From: Candidatus Saccharibacteria bacterium oral taxon 488
Lineage (GTDB): Bacteria > Patescibacteriota > Saccharimonadia > Saccharimonadales > Saccharimonadaceae
Assembly: GCA_010202845.1 (NCBI GenBank)
Contig: CP047921.1
Span: 360,001 to 392,000, forward strand
DNA: 32,000 bases
Reading direction: 5' to 3'
Shown one piece after another: positions 1-23,871 of the stretch (the stretch's first letter is position 1; every line of letters starts with the position of its first letter). Below the pieces are notes generated by a model, which was not told the DNA's origin, did no database searches, and was given only the letters and a program-made list of their open reading frames with translations. Made by a program: the position numbers and the translations under genes.

Positions 1-25
1 ATGACACGCCATTGTGCCATCTCAG

Positions 26-96
26 TGGATGTGACGGGACTTGAACCCGCAAGGCGCATCGGTTTTTAAGACCTTGCCTTCTTACCTAGCACACCC
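26..96 (-). ncRNA. Alternative reading: a self-contained 71-nt tRNA-like domain
   Basis: GGGTGTG (90-96) pairs 7/7 with CACATCC (27-33), including G3:U70. AAGGC/GCCTT closes a 20-nt loop next to the T arm. No D arm or anticodon arm can be drawn, so this is not a canonical tRNA. Confidence 0.35.
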
Positions 97-381
97 TGTG
101 ATTCTTTTCCGGATTACCGGTCGGCGAATCAAGCCGGGGGCGGACGGACGCCCTTTTGCTGACGCGGGGTCAGCGGGTTTCGGGGTCGCACAAACCCCGA
201 CCGTCACAATATAATAGCTAGTTCATCTTACCACACGCGTGGCAAGCCCACGAGTTTCCCCGTGGGACCGAGCTAATGTTATTTTTCTGGGAGCAGTGCT
301 TACACCGCACCCAGATTGGGTTCGTCCAGCCTGACGCACTAGACGAGCCTTCGTAGTTGCCGAACAAGGGTTTTCACCCCC
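26..381 (-). ncRNA. Candidate tmRNA (ssrA-like) structured RNA with a 3' tRNA-like domain
   Basis: On the minus strand there is a T arm GCGGG-TTCAAGT-CCCGT (34-50). It is followed by the acceptor 3' strand CACATCC (27-33) and discriminator A (26); CCA is not encoded. A distal 5' strand GGGGGTG (375-381) pairs 6/7 and includes G3:U70. A P2-like helix AAGGCTCGTC (342-351) pairs 9/10 with GATGCGCCTT (51-60), which abuts the T stem. Total length is 356 nt. An A-rich single-stranded stretch lies about 100 nt from the 5' end, and several GC hairpins follow. No canonical ...ALAA tag frame was found. Confidence 0.5.
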
Positions 382-401
382 TCCCCGCCGCGGTTGCGGC
401 G

Positions 402-495
402 ATAGAAAAGAGCTAATCCTCTTATCAGACCATGCCTTTGTGCGAAGCATAGTCAGGGCTTGGTATTATTCGCAATACCTCGCCAGTATTAGCTC
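402..495 (-). promoter_or_regulatory. Leader hairpin plus U-tract downstream of cassette copy 1 (attenuator or short RNA)
   Basis: GAGCTAAT (488-495 in reverse complement) pairs with ATTAGCTC (410-417 in reverse complement), enclosing about 70 nt that contain inner hairpins such as GGTATT/AATACC. TTTTCTAT follows immediately on the minus strand. Confidence 0.4.
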
Positions 496-515
496 CGTGA
501 ACAAAAGCAAGTATA

Positions 516-557
516 TATATATCAATAATAGCAAGCCATGTCAATAGTTTTTGTCAA
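516..557 (-). promoter_or_regulatory. Promoter cassette copy 1
   Basis: Minus strand reads TTGACA (552-557), 7 nt, TTGACA (539-544), 17-nt spacer ending in TGA, then TATATA (516-521). The cassette starts 7 nt after the helicase stop codon. Confidence 0.7.
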
Positions 558-563
558 GATTAC

Positions 564-3500
564 CTACGCTACCTCTGTTAATAAATCCTCCTCAAACTGC
601 AGCATCCCCTTATAATCCGCTGAATACCCAGAGATATCCGGTAGTTCCAGCATGGTGATTTTCCGCCAGACGACATTGATTAGCCGGGCAAATTCAGCCA
701 ATTCCTCCTTAGAGAACGTGTCCTCCAGGCTGAGGATGCCGCCAGTTTTCATGTCCGGCTCGACGAATTGCAGGCGGGCGCCGGTGAAGGTGAAATTGCC
801 ATAATCGCGTGATGACGTGACTAAGAGTTGATAAAACATCAGCTGCTGGCGGTATTTGTGGAGCTTGATTCTTTCGTAATCAGACGCGCCCTTCCAGGAG
901 TGCGATGGCTTGCCGGTCTTGTAATCGGTCACGAATATGGTTTTATTATTCTTATCAATATCAGCGACGTCCAGCTTGCCGGTCAGGCGCGCGCCGCTAA
1001 CGACGACGCCTTGATGAGCGAAATCGAGTTCCGCGAGCTCCGTGTCACGAAAATCAGACGATTTGGCGTCCAGAAACGCCGTCAGCGCCGCCGTGCCTTT
1101 GTCTAGATATAGCTCGAAATCGTCGGGCAGCAGGTGCTGGGTCTCGAGCGATGTGCGGAAATGTTGGAGGATGCGCTCGGCAGGCGGCAGGCGGTGGTCA
1201 GCGCCTAGCAGATTGTGCAGCTGCTGGAGACTGGCGTGAATGGCGGTGCCGTAGCTGGCGGCGGGATTTTTGGCGGACGGAAAGCGCAGCAGATTATTCA
1301 ACAAAAAGTTCTGCGGGCCGCCGCGCGAGACGTCGAGGAAGTTATTCAGATGCGTAATGGAAAGTTTGTAGGTTTCTAAGGTCGGCGCTAGTACATCCTT
1401 GAGCTCCGCGGTAATCGGCGCGCTCAGCCGCGTGCTCCAGTCGGTTTGCGCCATAGTGATTTGCGCCGCGGGCGTGTCGGCGGCGGGGATAATCGTCGGT
1501 GTGTGGGCGGTCAGGAAGCTGGCGATCATGGTGTCGCTACCGGCGTCGTTGGTCTGGGAATAGGTCATGGTCAGGGTGGTCTTGGCGCGGGTCATCGCTA
1601 CGAAAAATAGCCGCAGCCGCTCGTCGTAGCTGGCGCCGGCGGGCTGGAGCTGGAGGTTGGCGGGATAGCGAATCAGCCGCGAGCGCGAGCGGACTTTCTC
1701 GCCCCACGCGCTGTCGATTGCCCCAATGACGAAAACGTGCGGGAACTCCAGGCCTTTGGATTTGTGGGCGGTCATCAGGTTGATGGCGCCACCGAGGGTG
1801 CTGGCCTGGGGACGGATGTATGTCAGGCGGGTTTTGGTCGAGCGGTGCAGGTCGATGAACTCTAAAAAGTCCGCCAGCGTCGGTATTGCGTCGGTGACGC
1901 GGTCGCGTAATTTTTGGCGCAGTGTGCGCAGGCTCTCGAGCGTGGTTAGATAGGCGTCGGGGTTTTGGGCGAGGTTATCGGGCGAGAAGTAGTGGGCGGC
2001 GAGAGAGGCGGGCGAGGAGCTTTCCTCAAAGCTCCGTACAGCGATTGCAGCCCGAGCGTCCCTGGACGCCCGGCGCGTAAAGAGGAGCTTTGAGGAAAGT
2101 TCCTCGCCGGTTGATTGCAATCGCTGTACGGAGTCGATTGGAGTAATTCCGGCGTCTATCTCCAATCCCAACAACTTGTCCAACTGCTCCTCCAGCGGCA
2201 GATTTGGTACGTCCTTTGCCCGCTCCAGCAGCCACTCGCCAAACGGCCGAAAGGTGCTGTTCGCCAGCATACTCTCCAGCCACAGCTGCCGATTTTTATA
2301 GGCATGGAGGCTGAGCTGCCAGATATCCAGCGCCGAAAAGCCGAACGCCGGATGAGCGATGAACTCTGGCAGCAGGCTGTTAGCGACATCGAGATTATTC
2401 TGATGAATCGCCACGACGACCCGCGCCAGCTTGTCCAGCGCCTGAATGATATCTTGCTCTAAAATATCGTCGTGCCGCTCGTAATTGACAGCCAGATTCT
2501 GGCGGTACAGATATGGCAGCAGCTCGATCAGCTCCTTGTGATGGCGGGCGATGACGGTGATGTGCGCTGGGTCTTCGCCGCGTTTGATCAGTTCGGCAAT
2601 TTGCCGGGCCACCCCTGCCCGTTCCTCGCTTACCGAGGCAAATTCCTGGATTTCAACCCGCGCGCCGCTACCAGACGCGTGCGCGGTCAATTGCTTTGAC
2701 AAGCCGTCAATGGTGTTTTCTAAGCGATCCATCCCTTGGGTGATCACTCCGCGCGCCGCCGTCAAGATGTCAGCCGCCGAGCGGTAATTATCCGCCAGCA
2801 CGATGATTTTCGGATCGTGGTACTGCTGGCGGAAGCGCTGGATATTGCCAACATCGGCGCCTTGAAAACTGAAAATCGCCTGATCATCGTCGCCGACAGC
2901 CATGATGTTGGGATTGTCCTCATCGCCAGTCAGGTCAAATAACAGACGCAGCTGCGCCAGGTTGGTGTCCTGAAATTCGTCGACCATGATGAATTGATAT
3001 TGCTCCTGGAGGTTGGCGCGCAGTTCGGGGTGGGACTCGCAGGCTTGAATGACGGACAAAATCATGTCGTCGTAATCAAACAGCGAGCGCTCGGCCAGCA
3101 CGTCACCATATGCTTCGTAGACGTCAATGGCGGCGGATAGTTTCTCGCTGGCGGCAAAATCTTTCAGGATGAACTCGCCGGCGGCGTTCTTTTCGCACCA
3201 CTTGTTTTTCCAAGCGGTCAGCGGCTTGGTGGAGTTGGCGTCGATGGCCTCTTGGGCCGCGTGAGCGATGCTGAGCGCCAGAACTTGGGCGTACGGGGTG
3301 ATGGAGGACGGCAAATTGGCAGAGGTTTGGGCGGTGATCGCAGTGTTATTTGGCGCTGAGCTGGCGGTATCTCCAGAGGGTTCTGTGATGCCTCCCTCGC
3401 CGATTCTCTCGGCAATCTTCTCTGCCAGCGGCGCAAATAACTCAACGGTTTTTTTAGAAATCTTGGCCGCAAATACCTGCTGAATGTCGGAGGCAATGCC

Positions 3501-4037
3501 AGCGATGACACGCTGATTATCCGCCGTAATCGCCCGCAGTTCCGCCGGCGTGAGGCCGCTCTGCTTGAACTCAGAAATAACTCGGATTAGCTCGCTAGTG
3601 TAGACGAACTCGCCGTTGTTTTTAACGCTCAGCGGATTACGCCAATCAAGTCCCTCGAGAATTTCCGTCACAATTTGGTGCTGCGTCAGCTCATCCGCCG
3701 GCTGAGCGTCAGCGCCGTGAAAAAAATACTGCCGGTGCTGATTGATAATCTCCGTGCCGAAGCTGTGAAAGGTGTGAATGGCGATTTTATAAGCGTCCTC
3801 GCCGATGATCTGGCGCAGGCGCAGGCGCATGTTGGCGGCGCCGCTCTCGGTAAATGTCAGGCACAAAATACTGTCCGGCAGCGTGTCAGTCTGGCGCAAA
3901 ATCTGGGCGGTGCGCATGCTCAGCAGCTCGGTCTTGCCCGTACCCGGCCCGGCGATCACCAGGAGCGAGCCGTGAATATAGTCAACTGCCTGGCGCTGAT
4001 TGGCGTTCAGCTTGGCGTAGCGAGTTTGAAAATCCAT
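564..4037 (-). CDS. UvrD/PcrA-family helicase fused to a C-terminal PD-(D/E)xK (RecB-type) nuclease
   Basis: ORF of 1157 aa. Walker A motif is AGPGTGKT near the N terminus, and UvrD-type motifs are present (DEFQDT, VGDDDQAIFSFQGA). The C terminus carries GKLDVADID...VTDYKTGK...QQLMFYQLL, a D / D-x-K / QxxxY nuclease signature. Confidence 0.85.
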   Translation of the reverse strand: MDFQTRYAKLNANQRQAVDYIHGSLLVIAGPGTGKTELLSMRTAQILRQTDTLPDSILCLTFTESGAANMRLRLRQIIGEDAYKIAIHTFHSFGTEIINQHRQYFFHGADAQPADELTQHQIVTEILEGLDWRNPLSVKNNGEFVYTSELIRVISEFKQSGLTPAELRAITADNQRVIAGIASDIQQVFAAKISKKTVELFAPLAEKIAERIGEGGITEPSGDTASSAPNNTAITAQTSANLPSSITPYAQVLALSIAHAAQEAIDANSTKPLTAWKNKWCEKNAAGEFILKDFAASEKLSAAIDVYEAYGDVLAERSLFDYDDMILSVIQACESHPELRANLQEQYQFIMVDEFQDTNLAQLRLLFDLTGDEDNPNIMAVGDDDQAIFSFQGADVGNIQRFRQQYHDPKIIVLADNYRSAADILTAARGVITQGMDRLENTIDGLSKQLTAHASGSGARVEIQEFASVSEERAGVARQIAELIKRGEDPAHITVIARHHKELIELLPYLYRQNLAVNYERHDDILEQDIIQALDKLARVVVAIHQNNLDVANSLLPEFIAHPAFGFSALDIWQLSLHAYKNRQLWLESMLANSTFRPFGEWLLERAKDVPNLPLEEQLDKLLGLEIDAGITPIDSVQRLQSTGEELSSKLLFTRRASRDARAAIAVRSFEESSSPASLAAHYFSPDNLAQNPDAYLTTLESLRTLRQKLRDRVTDAIPTLADFLEFIDLHRSTKTRLTYIRPQASTLGGAINLMTAHKSKGLEFPHVFVIGAIDSAWGEKVRSRSRLIRYPANLQLQPAGASYDERLRLFFVAMTRAKTTLTMTYSQTNDAGSDTMIASFLTAHTPTIIPAADTPAAQITMAQTDWSTRLSAPITAELKDVLAPTLETYKLSITHLNNFLDVSRGGPQNFLLNNLLRFPSAKNPAASYGTAIHASLQQLHNLLGADHRLPPAERILQHFRTSLETQHLLPDDFELYLDKGTAALTAFLDAKSSDFRDTELAELDFAHQGVVVSGARLTGKLDVADIDKNNKTIFVTDYKTGKPSHSWKGASDYERIKLHKYRQQLMFYQLLVTSSRDYGNFTFTGARLQFVEPDMKTGGILSLEDTFSKEELAEFARLINVVWRKITMLELPDISGYSADYKGMLQFEEDLLTEVA

Positions 4038-9162: not shown

Positions 9163-10143
9163 CTACTCTACTTCTCGCAAAGCTTTATCCGTCGCCGCCA
9201 CCAATTCCCGCACGACTTCGTCATAATCCTCATACACGCGGAATCCTGCCGCGTACGGATGGCCGCCGCCGCCGAAGTAGCCAGCCACGATGTTGGCGAT
9301 CGGTAGGTTACCGCGCAGGCGGGCGGTTAGTTTGCCGTCGGGGTAGGTTTTGATGACGCAGCTGAGCGCCACGCCCTCGACCAACCGCAGCTCGTCGCCG
9401 ATCAGCGCGCCGGGGTTGTAGGCGTCGCTGTAGGCTTGAATTTCCTCGAACGGTACGTGCACCAGCGCCAATTGTCCGTCCAGTAAATATTCGATTCGCT
9501 CAATTAACTTACCTTTGTATGCCAGAATTTCCGGCGACTTTTTCATAAATTCGCGCCGCCGTTCTTCGATTTCGGCATTGGATGCGCCCAGCTCGGTCAA
9601 TTCACCCGCCACGTGGAAGGTCGCCGCGGTGGTGTTTGGCGTGGTGAGGCCCAGGCTGTCAGACATGATGGCGATCAACAAATTCTCCGCCGCTTGCTGG
9701 TTGATAGCCCAGCCAGCGTGGGTGAATAATTGGTAGAGCAATTCCCCGGTCGCTACCACGGTTTCTGATAGCATGGTGTGTTCAAAACTCAGCGTCGGCT
9801 CGGCGGTGTGATGGTCGATAACTAGCACCGGATGCGTTTCCAAAAAATGCCGCACCCCCGGCGTCTCTAAGACCTTACTGAGCAAAATATCAGCGCTGGT
9901 ATCCACGATAATAGCCAGGTCGGCGCGGGCTGGAAAATCACCAACTACCCGGTCCCAGCCGCGGATGTAGCGTAGGTATTTGGGGATATCGACCGGACAA
10001 TACAGCGTCACGGTCTTGCCCAAATCACTCAGCACTTCCTCCAGTGCCAAGCTAGAACCCAGGCTGTCGCCATCGGGGTTTTCGGCCTGGATGATGACAA
10101 GGCTGTTGGCGGATTGGATGAGTTGCTGGGCGGTATTAAACAT
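9163..10143 (-). CDS. nrnA: DHH-family phosphoesterase (NrnA-like oligoribonuclease / pAp phosphatase)
   Basis: 326 aa with the motifs DGDSLGSSLAL, VIDHH and GGGGHPYAAG (DHH plus DHHA1). Confidence 0.85.
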   Translation of the reverse strand: MFNTAQQLIQSANSLVIIQAENPDGDSLGSSLALEEVLSDLGKTVTLYCPVDIPKYLRYIRGWDRVVGDFPARADLAIIVDTSADILLSKVLETPGVRHFLETHPVLVIDHHTAEPTLSFEHTMLSETVVATGELLYQLFTHAGWAINQQAAENLLIAIMSDSLGLTTPNTTAATFHVAGELTELGASNAEIEERRREFMKKSPEILAYKGKLIERIEYLLDGQLALVHVPFEEIQAYSDAYNPGALIGDELRLVEGVALSCVIKTYPDGKLTARLRGNLPIANIVAGYFGGGGHPYAAGFRVYEDYDEVVRELVAATDKALREVE

Positions 10144-10185: not shown

Positions 10186-12159
10186 CTATTCGTCACGCAT
10201 ATCTTTAATCGGGTTGCGGCGGGTGTTGCGGATGAGCGGTATCAGGCACGCCAGCACAGCAGCAGCGATGATACTGAGGGCGACCGCGCCGATGATCATC
10301 CAGTCAATCGTCCAGAAATGGAAGGTTGTCGCCAAATCTTTCGGCGTCATGGCGATGCGCAGCGTCGCGGTGATTTGACTAGCCAGCAAATTGTCGGCGA
10401 TATATACGACGATTAGTCCGGCGGCGATACTGAACAGCGCGGTGAGCAGCGCCACGATCATGGTGTAGACGAAATAAATTTGGCTAATATCAAGTCGCGT
10501 TGCTCCAAGCGCTCGAAAAACTGCGGATTCTTTGCGGCTGTCGGCGATGGTGCGGGAAATGATAATCAGCAAGATAAAGGCGGCGATGATCGTCACGCCG
10601 ATGAATGTCCACATGATGATTGGCTTGAGGCGCTCCATGGCGTCGTAATTGACGAGCGAGTTGCTGCCGGTGGGCGATGCGAATACTACATAGTGCGGCA
10701 GGCAGATTGACTTATTAGACCTTTGGGTTTTGGAAGCTTCAACAGGTTCGGGCTGGGCGAATAAATCGGTGCCTCCTGTGCCGCCAGAAGCTCCTTCGCC
10801 GCAAGAAGCGGCTGCCAGGTAGCTGCGAGCTTTATTGGGGTCGCTGAATTCATAGATAGCCAGCGTCTCTTCCCTGTTGGCATTACCTTGATCATTGTTG
10901 GCGGTTTGAATAGTTGATTCAAGAGCTGTTTGCGCCGCGGTGGTCATTGAGCCGCGCGGCATGATCCAGGTGTATGACAGGCGGGCGCTTAAAAATTGCT
11001 GTAAGAAGCTGCCGATGTCGCTTTGGGCGGCTTCAATACCGTCCGGCATCAGGCCGACGACGCGGAAAGTAAATTTAGCCTGGGCAGGTTCGGGCTGGGC
11101 TGAGCCGAAAGTCTGATCAAAATAGCGCTGGTTGGCCTCGGTACGCTTGGCTTCGGCTGAACGATTATCCTTAACGACGGCCGGCGCAGCACAGGAATCG
11201 GCGGACGGCATGGCGTATTCGCGGTCTGGCTTGACATAATCGGCGGATGGTTTCTTAGCTTGATCGGCGGCAGCTTGGATTTGCCGTTTGGCGGTTTGTA
11301 GTAATTCTTGCGAAGCTGGGTTGCGATAACAGGCGCTGAATGTCAGCTGCCCGGCTTTTTGGCGCAATTCTTTGAGTCGTGCTAGTTGCGTATCATTGCT
11401 GGCATTTTTATCTAGCGGCTTGAGGCCAAGCAGCACTTCGGCGTCCTGGTAACGGATGATCAGCGGGATCTCATTGGGTTTGGCGCTGGCGCCAGCCAGC
11501 AAATATCCGCCTAGCAACGATTGGTCGATGGCGGTTATACTGCCGAATTGCTGTTTAAATTCTTCCAGCGGTGTCGGCTGGTTGTTCTGCTGGCGCTTGT
11601 CGTCAAACGACTCAATTCCCCGCTCCATATAATTTAGCATGCCATTGGCGGCGATTGACTGAATACTAAACTGCCGCACGGCGCCGCGGGTGCGGGCAAA
11701 TTGCCACTGCGCGTCCGCTGTGAGGCGCGGTAATTTGGCGGTCTCCTGGCGAATAAGCCGCTGGACAATGACGCTCTGGTTGTTCGGGTACGGCGGGCTA
11801 TCAGGAAACGATTGCATGATCGGCGGTTCGGATTTGGGGTCGTATGGCAGGCCGAGGCGGGCAGCCAGCGCTTGCTTGTCCTTGATCATTTGCGTGCGTT
11901 CGGCTTCGGCGCGGGCAGTTAGATTTGAGGTAAATTCAATATTATTTGGCCGAATGGCGGTTTGCGCTACTAAATAGCGGCTATTCAGGCTGCCTCGATC
12001 GAATTCCTCAATGCTCCGCTGAGCGCCCATTAGCATAGTCAGCCCCGCCAGCAGCGCTGCGAAAAGCAGCCCGGACACGACCACGGTGATGGACAAGCGA
12101 ATACGCCGCACTCGGAGTTTGGTGCCAGCCAGCCGTAGCGAATCGGTGATTCTAAGCAT
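10186..12159 (-). CDS. ABC transporter permease, FtsX/MacB type, with a large extracytoplasmic domain
   Basis: 657 aa. One N-terminal transmembrane segment, then a hydrophilic domain of about 480 aa, then a C-terminal FtsX-like 3-TM bundle (FRALGATRLDISQIYF...). Overlaps the upstream ATPase gene by 8 nt. Confidence 0.8.
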   Translation of the reverse strand: MLRITDSLRLAGTKLRVRRIRLSITVVVSGLLFAALLAGLTMLMGAQRSIEEFDRGSLNSRYLVAQTAIRPNNIEFTSNLTARAEAERTQMIKDKQALAARLGLPYDPKSEPPIMQSFPDSPPYPNNQSVIVQRLIRQETAKLPRLTADAQWQFARTRGAVRQFSIQSIAANGMLNYMERGIESFDDKRQQNNQPTPLEEFKQQFGSITAIDQSLLGGYLLAGASAKPNEIPLIIRYQDAEVLLGLKPLDKNASNDTQLARLKELRQKAGQLTFSACYRNPASQELLQTAKRQIQAAADQAKKPSADYVKPDREYAMPSADSCAAPAVVKDNRSAEAKRTEANQRYFDQTFGSAQPEPAQAKFTFRVVGLMPDGIEAAQSDIGSFLQQFLSARLSYTWIMPRGSMTTAAQTALESTIQTANNDQGNANREETLAIYEFSDPNKARSYLAAASCGEGASGGTGGTDLFAQPEPVEASKTQRSNKSICLPHYVVFASPTGSNSLVNYDAMERLKPIIMWTFIGVTIIAAFILLIIISRTIADSRKESAVFRALGATRLDISQIYFVYTMIVALLTALFSIAAGLIVVYIADNLLASQITATLRIAMTPKDLATTFHFWTIDWMIIGAVALSIIAAAVLACLIPLIRNTRRNPIKDMRDE

Positions 12160-20162: not shown

Positions 20163-20540
20163 TTAGCTTAACTCAACGCTAGCGCCTGCATCCTCGAGCG
20201 TCTTCTTGGCAGCTTCAGCTTCGTCCTTTGACACCTTTTCCTTGACTGGTGCTGGTGCGCCGTCAACGATAGCCTTTGACTCGCCGAGGCCTAAGCCGGT
20301 GATTTCCTTCACAGCCTTGATGACAGCGACTTTTTGAGCACCCGCGTCCTTTAGGGTGACGGTGAACTCAGTTTTTTCATCTTCTGCGGCAGTATCGCCG
20401 CCAGCAGCTGGACCAGCCACCGCAACTGCGGCTGCAGCCGGCTCGATGCCGTATTCTTCTTTCAGGTGATTTTTCAATTCGTTAACTTCTAGAACTGTCA
20501 ACTTGGTCAGTTCTTCAGCCAATTTCTTAATATCAGCCAT
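20163..20540 (-). CDS. rplL: 50S ribosomal protein L7/L12
   Basis: 125 aa with an Ala/Gly-rich hinge and the C-terminal domain [27 protein letters not shown] is TAAGGAG. Confidence 0.97.
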
Positions 20541-20696: not shown

Positions 20697-21221
20697 TTAA
20701 GCTGCAGCTTTGGCTTCGATGCCGTCCAGTAAGCCGTGCAAATTGCCGCCCAATGCGCCCACGGTATCGTGAACTGGTGAGAGTAGTTGTGCGACCACTT
20801 CGGCGATGAGCTGGTCTTTGCTTGGCAAGCCTGCCAGCGCTTTGATGTCAGCTTCGTTGATGCCGAGGCCTTCGCCTGAGAAACCACCGGCCAACTGTAG
20901 TGCTGGATGTGTCTTTGCAAACGTGTCCAAAACTTTGGCTGGCATGACCTCGTCTTCCGCGCTGATGGCGTAGACCAACTGGCCAACCAGGAGGTCAGTG
21001 TCGGTTTCTTTGTAGGTGTTGACGCCCTGCAATGCTACGCGTACCAAGCGGTTTTTGACAACCTTGATGACAACGTTTGCTTCGCGGGCAGCCTTGCGCA
21101 GCTCTTGCAATTCAGCCACGCTCAGACCCTGGTACCGCGCAAATGCCGTACCTTTGGCGTCTTTCAGAAGCTCGGTTAGTTCAGCAACCAAAGTTTGTTT
21201 TTTATCGCGTGAAATTGCCAT
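20697..21221 (-). CDS. rplJ: 50S ribosomal protein L10
   Basis: 174 aa showing the typical L10 pattern (MAISRDKKQTLVAELTELLKDAKG...). Confidence 0.95.
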   Translation of the reverse strand: MAISRDKKQTLVAELTELLKDAKGTAFARYQGLSVAELQELRKAAREANVVIKVVKNRLVRVALQGVNTYKETDTDLLVGQLVYAISAEDEVMPAKVLDTFAKTHPALQLAGGFSGEGLGINEADIKALAGLPSKDQLIAEVVAQLLSPVHDTVGALGGNLHGLLDGIEAKAAA

Positions 21222-21441
21222 AAAAATCCTTTCTTTGATTGGTTCTTGTGTGATTCGACCGATTTGTTAACGTGCGGTAATGGAGAATCTGGTTCTTGTT
21301 TACCCAAGTTTTAATCGAGCAAATAAAAACGTCTTTGATTCTCGCACTACCAAAGACGTGATTAAAACAGTTTTGTTTCATCCCTCGGCGGCATTTTTAC
21401 ATCTGTTTTTATACAAATCGCCGCTGTCTTTGGTAATGTTC
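21222..21441 (-). promoter_or_regulatory. rplJ leader of about 220 nt with alternative terminator and antiterminator pairings (L10-leader-like)
   Basis: Promoter TGCTACAAT at 21448-21456. The terminator is ACGTCTTTG/CAAAGACGT (21329-21359) followed by TTTTTATTT. An upstream ACCAAAGAC (21426-21434 in reverse complement) is complementary to the 5' arm of that terminator. Confidence 0.6.
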
Positions 21442-21493
21442 CTTAGAATTGTAGCAGAAATGACAACGGGATGCAAGACGATTATGGGTTAAT

Positions 21494-21884: not shown

Positions 21885-22904
21885 TTACAGTGAAGTTTCA
21901 ACCTTTACGCTCGGCCCCATGGCGGTGACGACAGCGATAGATTTGATATAAATGCCCTTGAGGCTGGATGGCTTTTGGGCGTTCAGGCTGGCGAGGAAAG
22001 CGCGGGTGTTTTCTGCCAGTTTGCCGGCGCCAAATGACACTTTACCGATCGCCAAGTGGACGATGGCCTGCTTGTCGACGCGGTACTCGACCTTGCCGGC
22101 CTTGGCTTCAGACACGGCTTTGGCGACGTCGGTAGCGACGGTGCCGGACTTTGGATTTGGCATCAAACCGCGCGGGCCGAGTAGCCGGGCGTACTTGCCA
22201 AGCTTTGGCATATATTGCGGCGTGGCGACCAAAATATCAAAGTTCAGCTCTTCCTTGTCCAGCTGCTTCAGGAATTCCTCGTCGCCGATGATGTCTGCGC
22301 CAGCTTTCTTAGCAGCGGCATGTTCGGTTTCCGGTGCGAAAACCGCCACGCGAACGTCTTTACCGGTGCCGTGCGGTAGTGCTACGGTCGAGCGGACGTT
22401 CTGGTCGGCTTGGCGCGGATCGACACCCAAGCGAACGTGGATTTCAACGCTGGCGTCGAACTTGACCGGGCTGGTCTCAGTCGCCAGTTTCAGTGCTTCG
22501 TCGAGGCTGTATAATTTACTTTTCTCAATCTTCTTCGCAGCTTCCTGATATTTCTTGCCGCGGCGCTCCAGGCGCGGGCGCGTAATTGGCTTCGGGCCTT
22601 TCTTAATATGTGCTTCGGTGTCGTCGGATTGCGGCGTGGTGTCGCCGGCTTCTTTGCGAGCTTCCTTTTCGGCCTTAGCTTCGGCTTCGTCGAGGGCTTT
22701 TTGGCTGCGTTTGCCGGCCTTGGCAACGACAGCCTCGCGCTCGGCGATGACGTCTTTGTCTTTAGTTTCGTGCGGCTTGCTGCTCTCAGGTGTGCCTGAT
22801 TCAGCTTCGGCAATTGCTGCCTCAATCTCGGCGATGGTATTCTTGTCGCTGACTGCTAATTGTAGTTCTGCTGCTTTTTCCAGCAGCTCGGCTTTCTTGG
22901 CCAT
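21885..22904 (-). CDS. rplA: 50S ribosomal protein L1 with an N-terminal extension of about 113 aa
   Basis: The canonical L1 core starts at [26 protein letters not shown]. The start is set at ATG 22904, which has the RBS GAAAGGA. The extension is Lys/Glu/Ala-rich. A -10 TATAAT lies at 22986-22991. Confidence 0.9.
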
Positions 22905-23022
22905 ACTAATCCTTTCTGTGGTACAAGCGGCGACTCGCCACCCCGGGCGAATCTGCCTCCCAGCATTGATTTGATTGATAGTGGAATTATACCTGAAATA
23001 ATGCAGTAAAGCAACTAGGGGT

Positions 23023-23871
23023 TTATGCTGCGAAAGTATCTGTGTCGCCGCTGTCATGGCGCATTAACTTCGAGAGGAAACGACGGTCTGGGATAACATG
23101 AATAGTGCTATCGCCATCGTCCAGCGAAAGGGCAACCCGCGGAGCTGGCTCATCATTGGCGTGGTCGGTAATTACACTAAAGCCGGTGGATCTCATGTCG
23201 TTAAATTTACTATACGGAAGTCTAACCCCCTCACTTGTAAATGTAGACCCTTCACCGGAAAACGACCCACTCTTACAGAAATCTTCGCCCAATTGCTGAG
23301 TCAATGTTTGAACACCCCAGGCGATTATCGCAGCACGGTCAGCGGGTGAGCCGGCATATTTGGCGGTATTTTCTATGTCGAGTATTGTCTCGTGTATCTC
23401 GGGATTTGTGGCTTGAGCCGAAAAATAATTTGCTAGCAAATCAGCTGGTAGATGAACATCAAATTGGAGAATATTGCCGATTGTCGCTTGGGAGAGTGGA
23501 AAATGATGCGTACCTCCACAGGAACGAATGGCCAATGCTGCCAGCGTTCGCGAGTGATCATTGACTGTAAATGTTTTAGCCTCTGGTAACAGGAGCTCTC
23601 CTTTTAGTTGGCGGACAGCTAGCTCATCGCTCTCAGTAACATTTGTGATAGTCACTGGCGAGCCGATGTAGTCGTCCGGAAAGTGTGGGGTGATGTGCCG
23701 CTTGATTATGTTTTCGGGATCCCTATCCGGCGAGAGGTGCTCTCCTCTCTTCGTTACTTCTGTTTTGGCAGCAAGTGCGTCATTAGCCTCATCAACTCCT
23801 CGCTGAAAGCTTGGACTGCTCAGGATAGACAGTCCATCGGCTATTGGTGAATGATGACGTCTTTCTCCCAT
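23023..23871 (-). CDS. Hypothetical protein (282 aa)
   Basis: Long intact ORF on the dominant strand. No motif recognised, and no clear Shine-Dalgarno or leaderless -10. The palindrome CTACACTTGTAG lies 6 nt upstream of the ATG. Confidence 0.5.
   Translation of the reverse strand: MGERRHHSPIADGLSILSSPSFQRGVDEANDALAAKTEVTKRGEHLSPDRDPENIIKRHITPHFPDDYIGSPVTITNVTESDELAVRQLKGELLLPEAKTFTVNDHSRTLAALAIRSCGGTHHFPLSQATIGNILQFDVHLPADLLANYFSAQATNPEIHETILDIENTAKYAGSPADRAAIIAWGVQTLTQQLGEDFCKSGSFSGEGSTFTSEGVRLPYSKFNDMRSTGFSVITDHANDEPAPRVALSLDDGDSTIHVIPDRRFLSKLMRHDSGDTDTFAA

Follow-up and report, generated by a model that had tools for sequence, protein, structure and literature searches.

tRNA-like structures are found in several kinds of RNA that are not tRNAs. 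In transfer-messenger RNA (tmRNA, the product of ssrA; Rfam family RF00023), messenger and tRNA-like parts are combined in one molecule, the latter being an acceptor and T-arm domain, and pseudoknots lie between the open reading frame (ORF) and the T arm. In MALAT1-mascRNA, the MEN-beta 3' modules and mitochondrial tRNA punctuation, a non-decoding mimic directly follows a compact A-rich structure that protects the 3' end. The tRNA-like structures of plant viruses such as turnip yellow mosaic virus (TYMV) and tobacco mosaic virus (TMV) come after a stop codon and pseudoknots, in that order; the viral acceptor stem is itself pseudoknotted and located at the extreme 3' end, and the viral structure is aminoacylated. 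The bacterial YrlA Y-RNA-like mimics and the Escherichia coli intercistronic sites cleaved by RNase P are non-tRNA transcripts that show an elbow or minihelix to tRNA enzymes. On a tRNA, RNase P, RNase Z and the CCA-adding enzyme recognise the coaxial stack of acceptor stem and T arm. Here, we analyzed the minus strand of positions 26-509 of a 32-kb stretch of Saccharibacteria DNA (the window), which appears to encode such a minihelix in a tRNA mimic lacking a conserved anticodon, placed behind two pseudoknot domains in the transcript of a zinc-ribbon microprotein. An earlier note, made from the sequence alone, had described a tmRNA-like RNA with two competing 5' acceptor strands and had not seen a protein-coding mRNA with structured untranslated regions (UTRs).

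It is well supported that the region forms one transcription unit of a Candidatus Saccharibacteria (Nanosynbacter-like) chromosome, between addA and dus, the dus side being placed by homology with relatives. The order of its parts is likewise well supported: promoter, structured 5' UTR, zinc-ribbon ORF, two pseudoknot domains, tRNA mimic, hairpin, three-helix element and terminator. The end of the hairpin, the three-helix element, the terminator and dus lie past the window edge and were read from relatives only; we regard the overall anatomy as very probably correct. Among the 18 window ORFs scanned, no smpB was found, and the one upstream of the unit (564-4037, minus strand) encodes an AddA-type helicase-nuclease. 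A search with AddA, using one genome per species, gave 77 loci (named L001 and so on), all from Candidatus Saccharibacteria (TM7, Nanosynbacter or Minimicrobia), with protein identities of 59-92%. A canonical T arm was present 400-580 nt past the addA stop in most of the 77 loci, and in nearly all of those reaching far enough downstream; a module at the matching position was found in about 60 related loci. Folding of the 501-nt region indicated strong structure (-217 kcal/mol, z=-7.4). The composite of ORF, pseudoknots and mimic had no match in Rfam 15, either in the window or in relatives, and no description of this locus was found in the literature on tmRNA, SmpB or tRNA-like RNAs in Saccharibacteria. 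We class the tRNA-like element embedded in a non-tRNA transcript as an already known category, and this composite as new within it.

The tRNA-like module of the window is laid out as follows.

26..96, minus strand: tRNA-like module, 71 nt, the minimum-energy fold agreeing with this layout
96-90 with 33-27, minus strand: acceptor stem GGGUGUG/CACAUCC, 7/7 pairs, with G3:U70
26, minus strand: discriminator A
89-81, minus strand: 9-nt linker containing GG
80-76 with 55-51 and 73-71 with 63-61, minus strand: arm and inner helix, with a 7-nt end loop CUUAAAA
50-46 with 38-34, minus strand: T arm with loop UUCAAGU

The T-arm sequence at 48-36 (minus strand) is GGGTTCAAGTCCC, as RNA GGGUUCAAGUCCC. 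The module lacks a D stem and does not encode CCA, CUG coming next. Three elements proposed in the earlier note were borne out: the T arm at 48-36, the 3' acceptor strand CACATCC with discriminator A at 33-26, and the proximal 5' strand GGGTGTG at 96-90, which pairs 7/7 and closes a 71-nt module folding as described.

Homologous loci support the acceptor helix formed with the proximal strand. Across loci, L073 apart, the 7 nt after the T stem pair 7/7 with a heptamer located 28-69 nt upstream of the T arm. This heptamer starts directly after a conserved motif ending in AAAAGAAUCA or, in three loci without the motif, after the preceding hairpin. More than 12 acceptor stem sequences were observed, including GGGUGUG/CACAUCC, GGACGCG/CGCGUCC, GGACAUG/CAUGUCC, GGGUAUG/CAUGCCC, GGACAUA/UGUGUCC and GGGCGUG/CACGCUC. 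When acceptor and T arm were concatenated (31 distinct sequences), 97.3% of cells were paired and compensatory changes were seen in 7/12 pairs. The observed pairing or covariation was reached by 0/500 shuffles, and sliding the partners by 1-3 columns left 40-62% paired. As judged from these sequences, the module fits the definition of a tRNA-like acceptor/T-arm minihelix maintained by selection.

Outside the minihelix, the modules vary widely. The 47 distinct modules, 51-92 nt in length, have only the acceptor stem and the T arm in common, and the T loop is invariant at U54, U55, C56 and A58, with a purine (G or A) at position 57. Their bodies fall into at least seven unrelated types, some being mini forms like that of the window and some comprising a small D-like hairpin and a long rod with 3 or 4 nt in its terminal loop. 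Only a type with a full D arm reaches the RF00005 threshold (43-46 bits), its anticodon arm being a long rod with a tetraloop cap, and the module of L196, whose Dus is 55% identical, combines a canonical D arm with a GAAA (GNRA) tetraloop at the place of the anticodon loop. A GG, such as a D-loop contact with the T loop in an L-shaped elbow would use, occurs within 17 nt after the acceptor strand in 46/47 distinct modules, which is fairly often expected by chance. CCA is encoded in only some module types; the genuine tRNA-Gln gene of the relative L019 encodes it. ARAGORN names some of the relatives' modules tRNA-Phe, -Arg, -Trp, -SeC, -Ser, -Val or -Glu, the anticodon differing in almost every called variant. 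With no D stem in the window module and no conserved anticodon among the variants, the element is not a canonical tRNA (RF00005). The G3:U70 pair, read in the earlier note as a sign of alanine identity, is present in the window's module type and is not conserved: it occurs in 8/31 distinct homologous modules, pair 3:70 being A-U in 18, G-U in 8 and G-C in 5, and the discriminator is A or G. On this comparative evidence, the mimic appears to be selected for its acceptor/T-arm half, not for decoding or for a fixed amino-acid identity.

Some loci carry more than one mimic. Two tandem copies (approximately 9740-9845 and 10030-10125) are present in L053, L054, L055, L056, L057, L061, L064 and L077, where a D-arm type abuts pseudoknot B (described below) and a window-type mini module follows about 280 nt further on. 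In L195, two separate mimic-bearing RNAs lie upstream of dus (2680-2760 and 3220-3335).

We compared the locus with tmRNA in detail. A divergent tmRNA would require that a distal 5' strand, GGGGGTG at 381-375, pair with the 3' end to give a 356-nt molecule, with a 10-bp P2 helix abutting the T arm and an internal frame serving as degradation tag. Consistent with this are G3:U70 and A73 in the window, the pseudoknots between ORF and T arm, a candidate P2 helix of 9/10 bp in the window, and a sub-threshold Rfam match: in a relaxed search of 700 nt, the tmRNA model matched 96-23 with 22.2 bits (E=5.8e-7), covering acceptor and T-arm positions only. However, the cut-off is 47 bits and 303 model positions were deleted, and L053 scored 25.9 bits. 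At gathering score, no Rfam family was found here, the only one in the window being a distant L10 leader; ARAGORN reported 0 tRNA and 0 tmRNA in the whole 32 kb, and no tmRNA in relatives. The distal strand is present, with one G-A mismatch against the 3' strand, and proved to be part of a Shine-Dalgarno box: it reads GGGGGUG, GGAGGUG or AGAGGUG irrespective of the 3' strand, while the latter covaries with the proximal strand, so that the acceptor stem closes locally and not around a message. P2 is absent in relatives: in the four examined with the same module type it pairs at 6-7/10, a background level not exceeding what the best match found anywhere upstream gives. Where an anticodon would be, the arm forms a closed hairpin. 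In addition, the ORF comes with a Shine-Dalgarno box and a start codon of its own, the encoded proteins (47-63 aa) look folded and belong to many unrelated families, and the mimic lies mid-transcript. Given the proximal covariation, the unchanging distal heptamer and P2 at background, the proximal model is right and the 356-nt tmRNA wrong. Five features that define a tmRNA, namely an enclosing acceptor, conserved G3:U70, a tag frame, P2 and recognition by ARAGORN or RF00023, are lacking. The earlier note had left a choice between ssrA and a different RNA carrying a tRNA-Ala mimic; the second holds broadly, its alanine identity being confined to the window's module type and not conserved. A permuted or two-piece tmRNA was also rejected, as the acceptor strands stand in the standard order and the module is closed, and RNase P, signal recognition particle and 6S RNAs gave no Rfam match even at E<=10 in the window or L053.

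Between the 5' UTR and the pseudoknots lies the sequence in which the tag had been sought.

218..367, minus strand: small ORF of 49 aa, with TTG start at 367-365, TAG stop at 220-218 and a Shine-Dalgarno box; product M/LFGNYEGSSSASGWTNPIWVRCKHCSQKNNISSVPRGNSWACHACGKMN

The three reading frames listed in the earlier note are present as described, and its impression that the tag was unclear is explained by one of them: the frame ending in ...CGKMN is this ORF, and its 49-aa product, MFGNYEGSSSASGWTNPIWVRCKHCSQKNNISSVPRGNSWACHACGKMN, is a CxxC...CxxC zinc ribbon. A small protein gene accounts for the stretch at about 365-206, where BLAST gave no alignment between relatives. ORFs of 47-63 aa, preceded by a GGAGG-type box and starting with ATG, GTG or TTG, were present in about 55/63 distinct related sequences scanned. 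They fall into at least 12 unrelated families, including DnaJ-like CxxCxGxG fingers, several zinc ribbons and helical Lys/Ala/Glu-rich proteins; an Ala-Ala terminus occurs in none of them. Differences at codon positions 1/2/3 numbered 73/83/298 in family a, 24/20/114 in family f and 274/249/660 in family b, and this third-position excess within families argues that the ORF is translated. The ribosome-binding site, the start codon and codon-level purifying selection together mark the ORF, by sequence criteria, as a real protein-coding gene. A homologue of the window's 49-aa protein is carried by L004; a search of a 5.8-billion-protein collection returned no homologue, and ten microproteins scanned had no significant Pfam, NCBIfam or PHROGs family. 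A 75-aa ATG ORF at 223-450 (minus strand), in the ...TRVVR frame, was rejected: it lacks conservation and runs, in a different frame, across the 5' UTR and the real ORF. Gene callers would probably pick it wrongly here.

The region between ORF and mimic comprises two pseudoknot domains, for which pairs were counted in 35 distinct sequences.

138..205, minus strand: 3' UTR pseudoknot domain A
199-195 with 185-181, minus strand: domain A helix H1, 4/5 pairs covarying
174-169 with 163-158, minus strand: domain A helix H2
153-149 with 142-138, minus strand: domain A helix H3, 3/5 pairs covarying
205-201 with 147-143, minus strand: domain A pseudoknot, GACGG with the conserved H3 loop CCGUC, 98.9% paired, 2/5 pairs covarying
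99..136, minus strand: 3' UTR pseudoknot domain B
136-133 with 125-122, minus strand: domain B helix H4, 97.9% paired
120-117 with 112-109, minus strand: domain B helix H5, 98.3% paired
108-105, minus strand: domain B A-rich tract
130-126 with 104-100, minus strand: domain B pseudoknot, H4 loop GAUUC with GAAUC, 96.6% paired

For the two domains together, 92.7% of cells were paired, with compensatory changes in 17/34 pairs, and covariation in the sequences thus supports both. The sequence of pseudoknot B is invariant within the 35-sequence set, and UGAUC/GAUCA-type pairings take its place in the divergent loci L002, L004 and L069. Pseudoknot B ends 3 nt before G96, the first base of the window's mimic. 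Domain A is missing in some loci and domain B in others; the mimic is kept in every locus reaching far enough. The minimum-energy helix of UGUGACGG (209-202) with CCGUCACA (38-31) was treated as a folding artefact because it can form only with the window's module type.

At its 5' end, the unit comprises a promoter and a structured leader, the latter modelled with RNAalifold on 13 relatives.

516..544, minus strand: sigma-70-type promoter read from the sequence, -35 TTGACA at 544-539, 17-nt spacer, -10 TATATA at 521-516
368..509, minus strand: structured 5' UTR
484-457, minus strand: covarying hairpin
454-428, minus strand: hairpin with a conserved UCGCACAAA loop
414-404, minus strand: pyrimidine tract AGCUCUUUUCU, predicted partner of the Shine-Dalgarno region
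400-387, minus strand: small hairpin
384-374, minus strand: Shine-Dalgarno box GGAGGGGGUGA, including the GGGGGTG (381-375) discussed above

The TTGACA-17-TATATA promoter at 544-516, noticed earlier, was confirmed in the sequence; the scan program did not pick it up because its -10 box ends in A. The inferred transcription start is near 509, and conservation among relatives starts at about 508, BLAST finding a shared block at 508-365 with 80-89% identity. The 5' UTR model contains 46 pairs, 11 of them with compensatory changes, and its helix of AGCUCUUUUCU with the Shine-Dalgarno region is predicted to be able to sequester that box. Two other pairings were set aside: a P1 helix (496-488 with 417-409), for which the changes in L021 and L071 are non-compensatory and RNAalifold favours another fold, and a long-range one between the Shine-Dalgarno box and the UCCCUCCC tract downstream, for which reading the sequences gave no evident covariation.

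On the other side of the mimic, the window cuts through the trailer.

1..23, minus strand: part of the trailer hairpin (GAGAUGGCAC-AAUGGC-GUGUCAUCUC), truncated at the window edge after the 5' strand, the loop and some of the 3' strand, and recognised from L053, L068 and other relatives

In relatives, the downstream order is a 10-12-bp trailer hairpin, a conserved element (about 75 nt) for which three helices are predicted, an intrinsic terminator, and dus about 20 nt further on. The 75-nt element (L053, 10150-10300; L001-L077) reads GGGYUCGCGAG(A)UUCACUCGUGGCAG, a variable hairpin and then ACUCCGAGCAGAACCGCUUGAGCCC; the change of CUCG/CGAG to UUCG/CGAA and UUUG/CAAA between loci suggests a real helix. 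It had no Rfam match, and an RNase P relationship considered for its CAGAACCGCUU motif was dropped, as the likeness to the RNase P CR-IV motif is only loose. L044 has, past the terminator, a separate leaderless promoter serving an XRE-like gene and dus, and this indicates that the mimic-bearing RNA is its own transcription unit. The L044 promoter (10440-10490) reads TTGACA-18-TAATAT and lies 6 nt before the ATG of the XRE-like gene. In most loci, TGTGATAAAAT, a leaderless-type promoter, is located 9 nt before the dus ATG, directly after the U-rich tail of the terminator. The possibility of a dus leader or autoregulatory operator is weakened by the RNA ending at its own terminator and by the separate leaderless promoter that follows in L044.

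The arrangement was kept in metagenomic relatives with Dus 55-71% identical and was absent from more distant Dus loci. Two pattern scans of viral contigs gave one true relative, L186 (IMG/VR contig IMGVR_UViG_3300014026_000189, 1900-3700), and otherwise chance matches. L186 carries a small ORF, the pseudoknots, the mimic and dus, with a XerC-like tyrosine recombinase in the place of addA, and probably comes from a Saccharibacteria chromosome or the edge of a prophage. An integration-site (att) scar was rejected: no integrase lies downstream, the order addA ... dus ... atp is conserved, and the XerC-like gene is upstream in L186 only. The types of mimic and trailer assort independently of each other and of the ORF family, a single such family occurring with 5 acceptor types. 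The mimic of L073 (approximately 9990-10060) is a chimera with only 5/7 acceptor pairs; its 5' half is of the D-arm type (GGACGCA...), its 3' strand CACGUCC resembles the mini types (CACAUCC), and a recent recombination event within the T arm seems to have produced it. The independent assortment, the five acceptor types of one ORF family and the L073 chimera point to recombination within conserved RNA blocks, through which ORF, mimic body and trailer appear to be shuffled as exchangeable cassettes.

Since only the minihelix is conserved, and it is the part on which RNase P, RNase Z and the CCA-adding enzyme act, the most economical reading is that the mimic serves as punctuation, a signal for RNase P/Z-type processing and for protection of the 3' end. 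We put this forward tentatively, at a little under even confidence. RNase P would cleave at G96, the 5' end of the mimic; the 3' end left on the microprotein mRNA would be enclosed by pseudoknot B with its A-rich tract and would resist 3' exonucleases, and the mimic and the 3' segment would be set free as separate RNAs. Such an arrangement would be analogous to MALAT1-mascRNA and to mitochondrial tRNA punctuation, with the differences that the locus is bacterial, follows a protein-coding ORF, has an H-type pseudoknot instead of a triple helix, and has its cleavage inferred only; the Rfam mascRNA model matched one relative's module weakly (21 bits, E=0.17). From the YrlA mimics and the E. coli sites, the locus differs in having no Rsr/Ro context or Rfam match, and in a module that is complete, covarying, exchangeable and linked to a microprotein. 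Several observations weigh against punctuation. Pseudoknot B ends 1-3 nt before G+1, and a leader structure so close could inhibit RNase P, in which case a retained virus-like tRNA end or a protein-binding decoy would be favoured. A plain processing signal is not obviously in need of at least seven body types. Finally, modules of the window type retain G3:U70, A73 and an anticodon-like loop of 7 nt, features that leave room for charging by alanyl-tRNA synthetase (AlaRS).

Among the alternatives to punctuation, an unlikely one holds that the mimic binds or decoys a protein with affinity for tRNA, such as Dus, another tRNA-modifying enzyme or a tRNA-targeting toxin, and would thereby regulate expression or titrate that factor; an arms race of this kind would explain the fast turnover of mimic bodies. 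The locus lies beside dus in a wide range of relatives, including one without addA upstream, some modules have a canonical D arm containing uridines, and the ORF and the mimic body are both hypervariable. However, dus appears to have its own promoter after the terminator, many modules, including the window's, have no D arm, the linkage to dus cannot be told apart from the conserved gene order that these genomes show in general, and no toxin or defence gene was seen nearby.

We consider it improbable that the mimic is retained as a 3'-terminal tRNA-like structure, as in tymoviruses and tobamoviruses, where it would receive CCA and perhaps an amino acid, and would boost the stability or translation of the microprotein mRNA or bring it to ribosomes. 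The order of ORF, pseudoknots and tRNA mimic is that of the viral RNAs, pseudoknot B abuts G+1 and may block RNase P, the window type has alanine identity elements, and CCA is encoded by some module types. Against this, the mimic is internal, with hairpin, three-helix element and terminator coming after it, its acceptor is a plain 7-bp helix, the identity elements are not conserved, and most modules have no encoded CCA, unlike the L019 tRNA-Gln gene; Rfam matches to the SBWMV pseudoknot families were noise (E 2.5-3.6). Another proposal, to which we give little weight, is a cellular chimera of messenger and transfer parts, in which the mimic, on the mRNA or in trans after release, would engage the translation or tRNA-surveillance machinery. 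CCA addition, AlaRS charging of the G3:U70 types, binding of EF-Tu or ribosomes, or decoying of a tRNA-targeting toxin could be involved, and the hypervariable ORF and mimic body would then co-evolve as cassettes of a system for conflict or stress that is peculiar to the episymbiotic Saccharibacteria.

It is very unlikely that the modules are decaying tRNA genes or recombination scars without a function of their own. The changing ARAGORN anticodon, the unrelated bodies of close relatives and the chimeric module of L073 would fit such decay, but the 7-bp acceptor stem and canonical T arm are upheld by compensatory changes at every examined locus reaching far enough, the module always starts directly after pseudoknot B, or after domain A where B is absent, and it is retained with Dus at only 55% identity. 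A divergent tmRNA, on the pairing evidence given above, is scarcely credible.

For annotation, the locus should be called neither ssrA nor tRNA in Saccharibacteria, despite the ARAGORN tRNA calls in many relatives, and it hides a microprotein gene from annotation. It would be a clear bacterial case of a tRNA mimic that is under selection but lacks a conserved anticodon, within a protein-coding transcript and behind two pseudoknots. Should cleavage by RNase P prove true, it would also be the counterpart, in bacteria, of 3'-end formation of the MALAT1-mascRNA type. With ORF and mimic cassettes being exchanged between conserved RNA blocks, this genome-reduced and naturally competent episymbiont would offer a tractable system for studying structured UTRs as recombination anchors. 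Nanosynbacter is amenable to genetic manipulation (PMC10633639), and according to a TM7x transcriptome preprint (10.1101/2022.03.25.485537), TM7x has no currently validated small RNAs.

Elsewhere in the window, the ribosomal protein L10 leader (RF00557, 56.9 bits) at 21315-21451 (minus strand) is an ordinary one, upstream of the L10 gene at 20697-21221, and the adjoining 125-aa ORF at 20163-20540 is presumably rplL. The ribosomal protein L1 ORF at 21885-23057 (minus strand) encodes 390 aa, of which only residues 194-382 form the L1 domain, and overlaps the ORF at 23023-23871; either its start was called too far upstream or the protein has an N-terminal extension.

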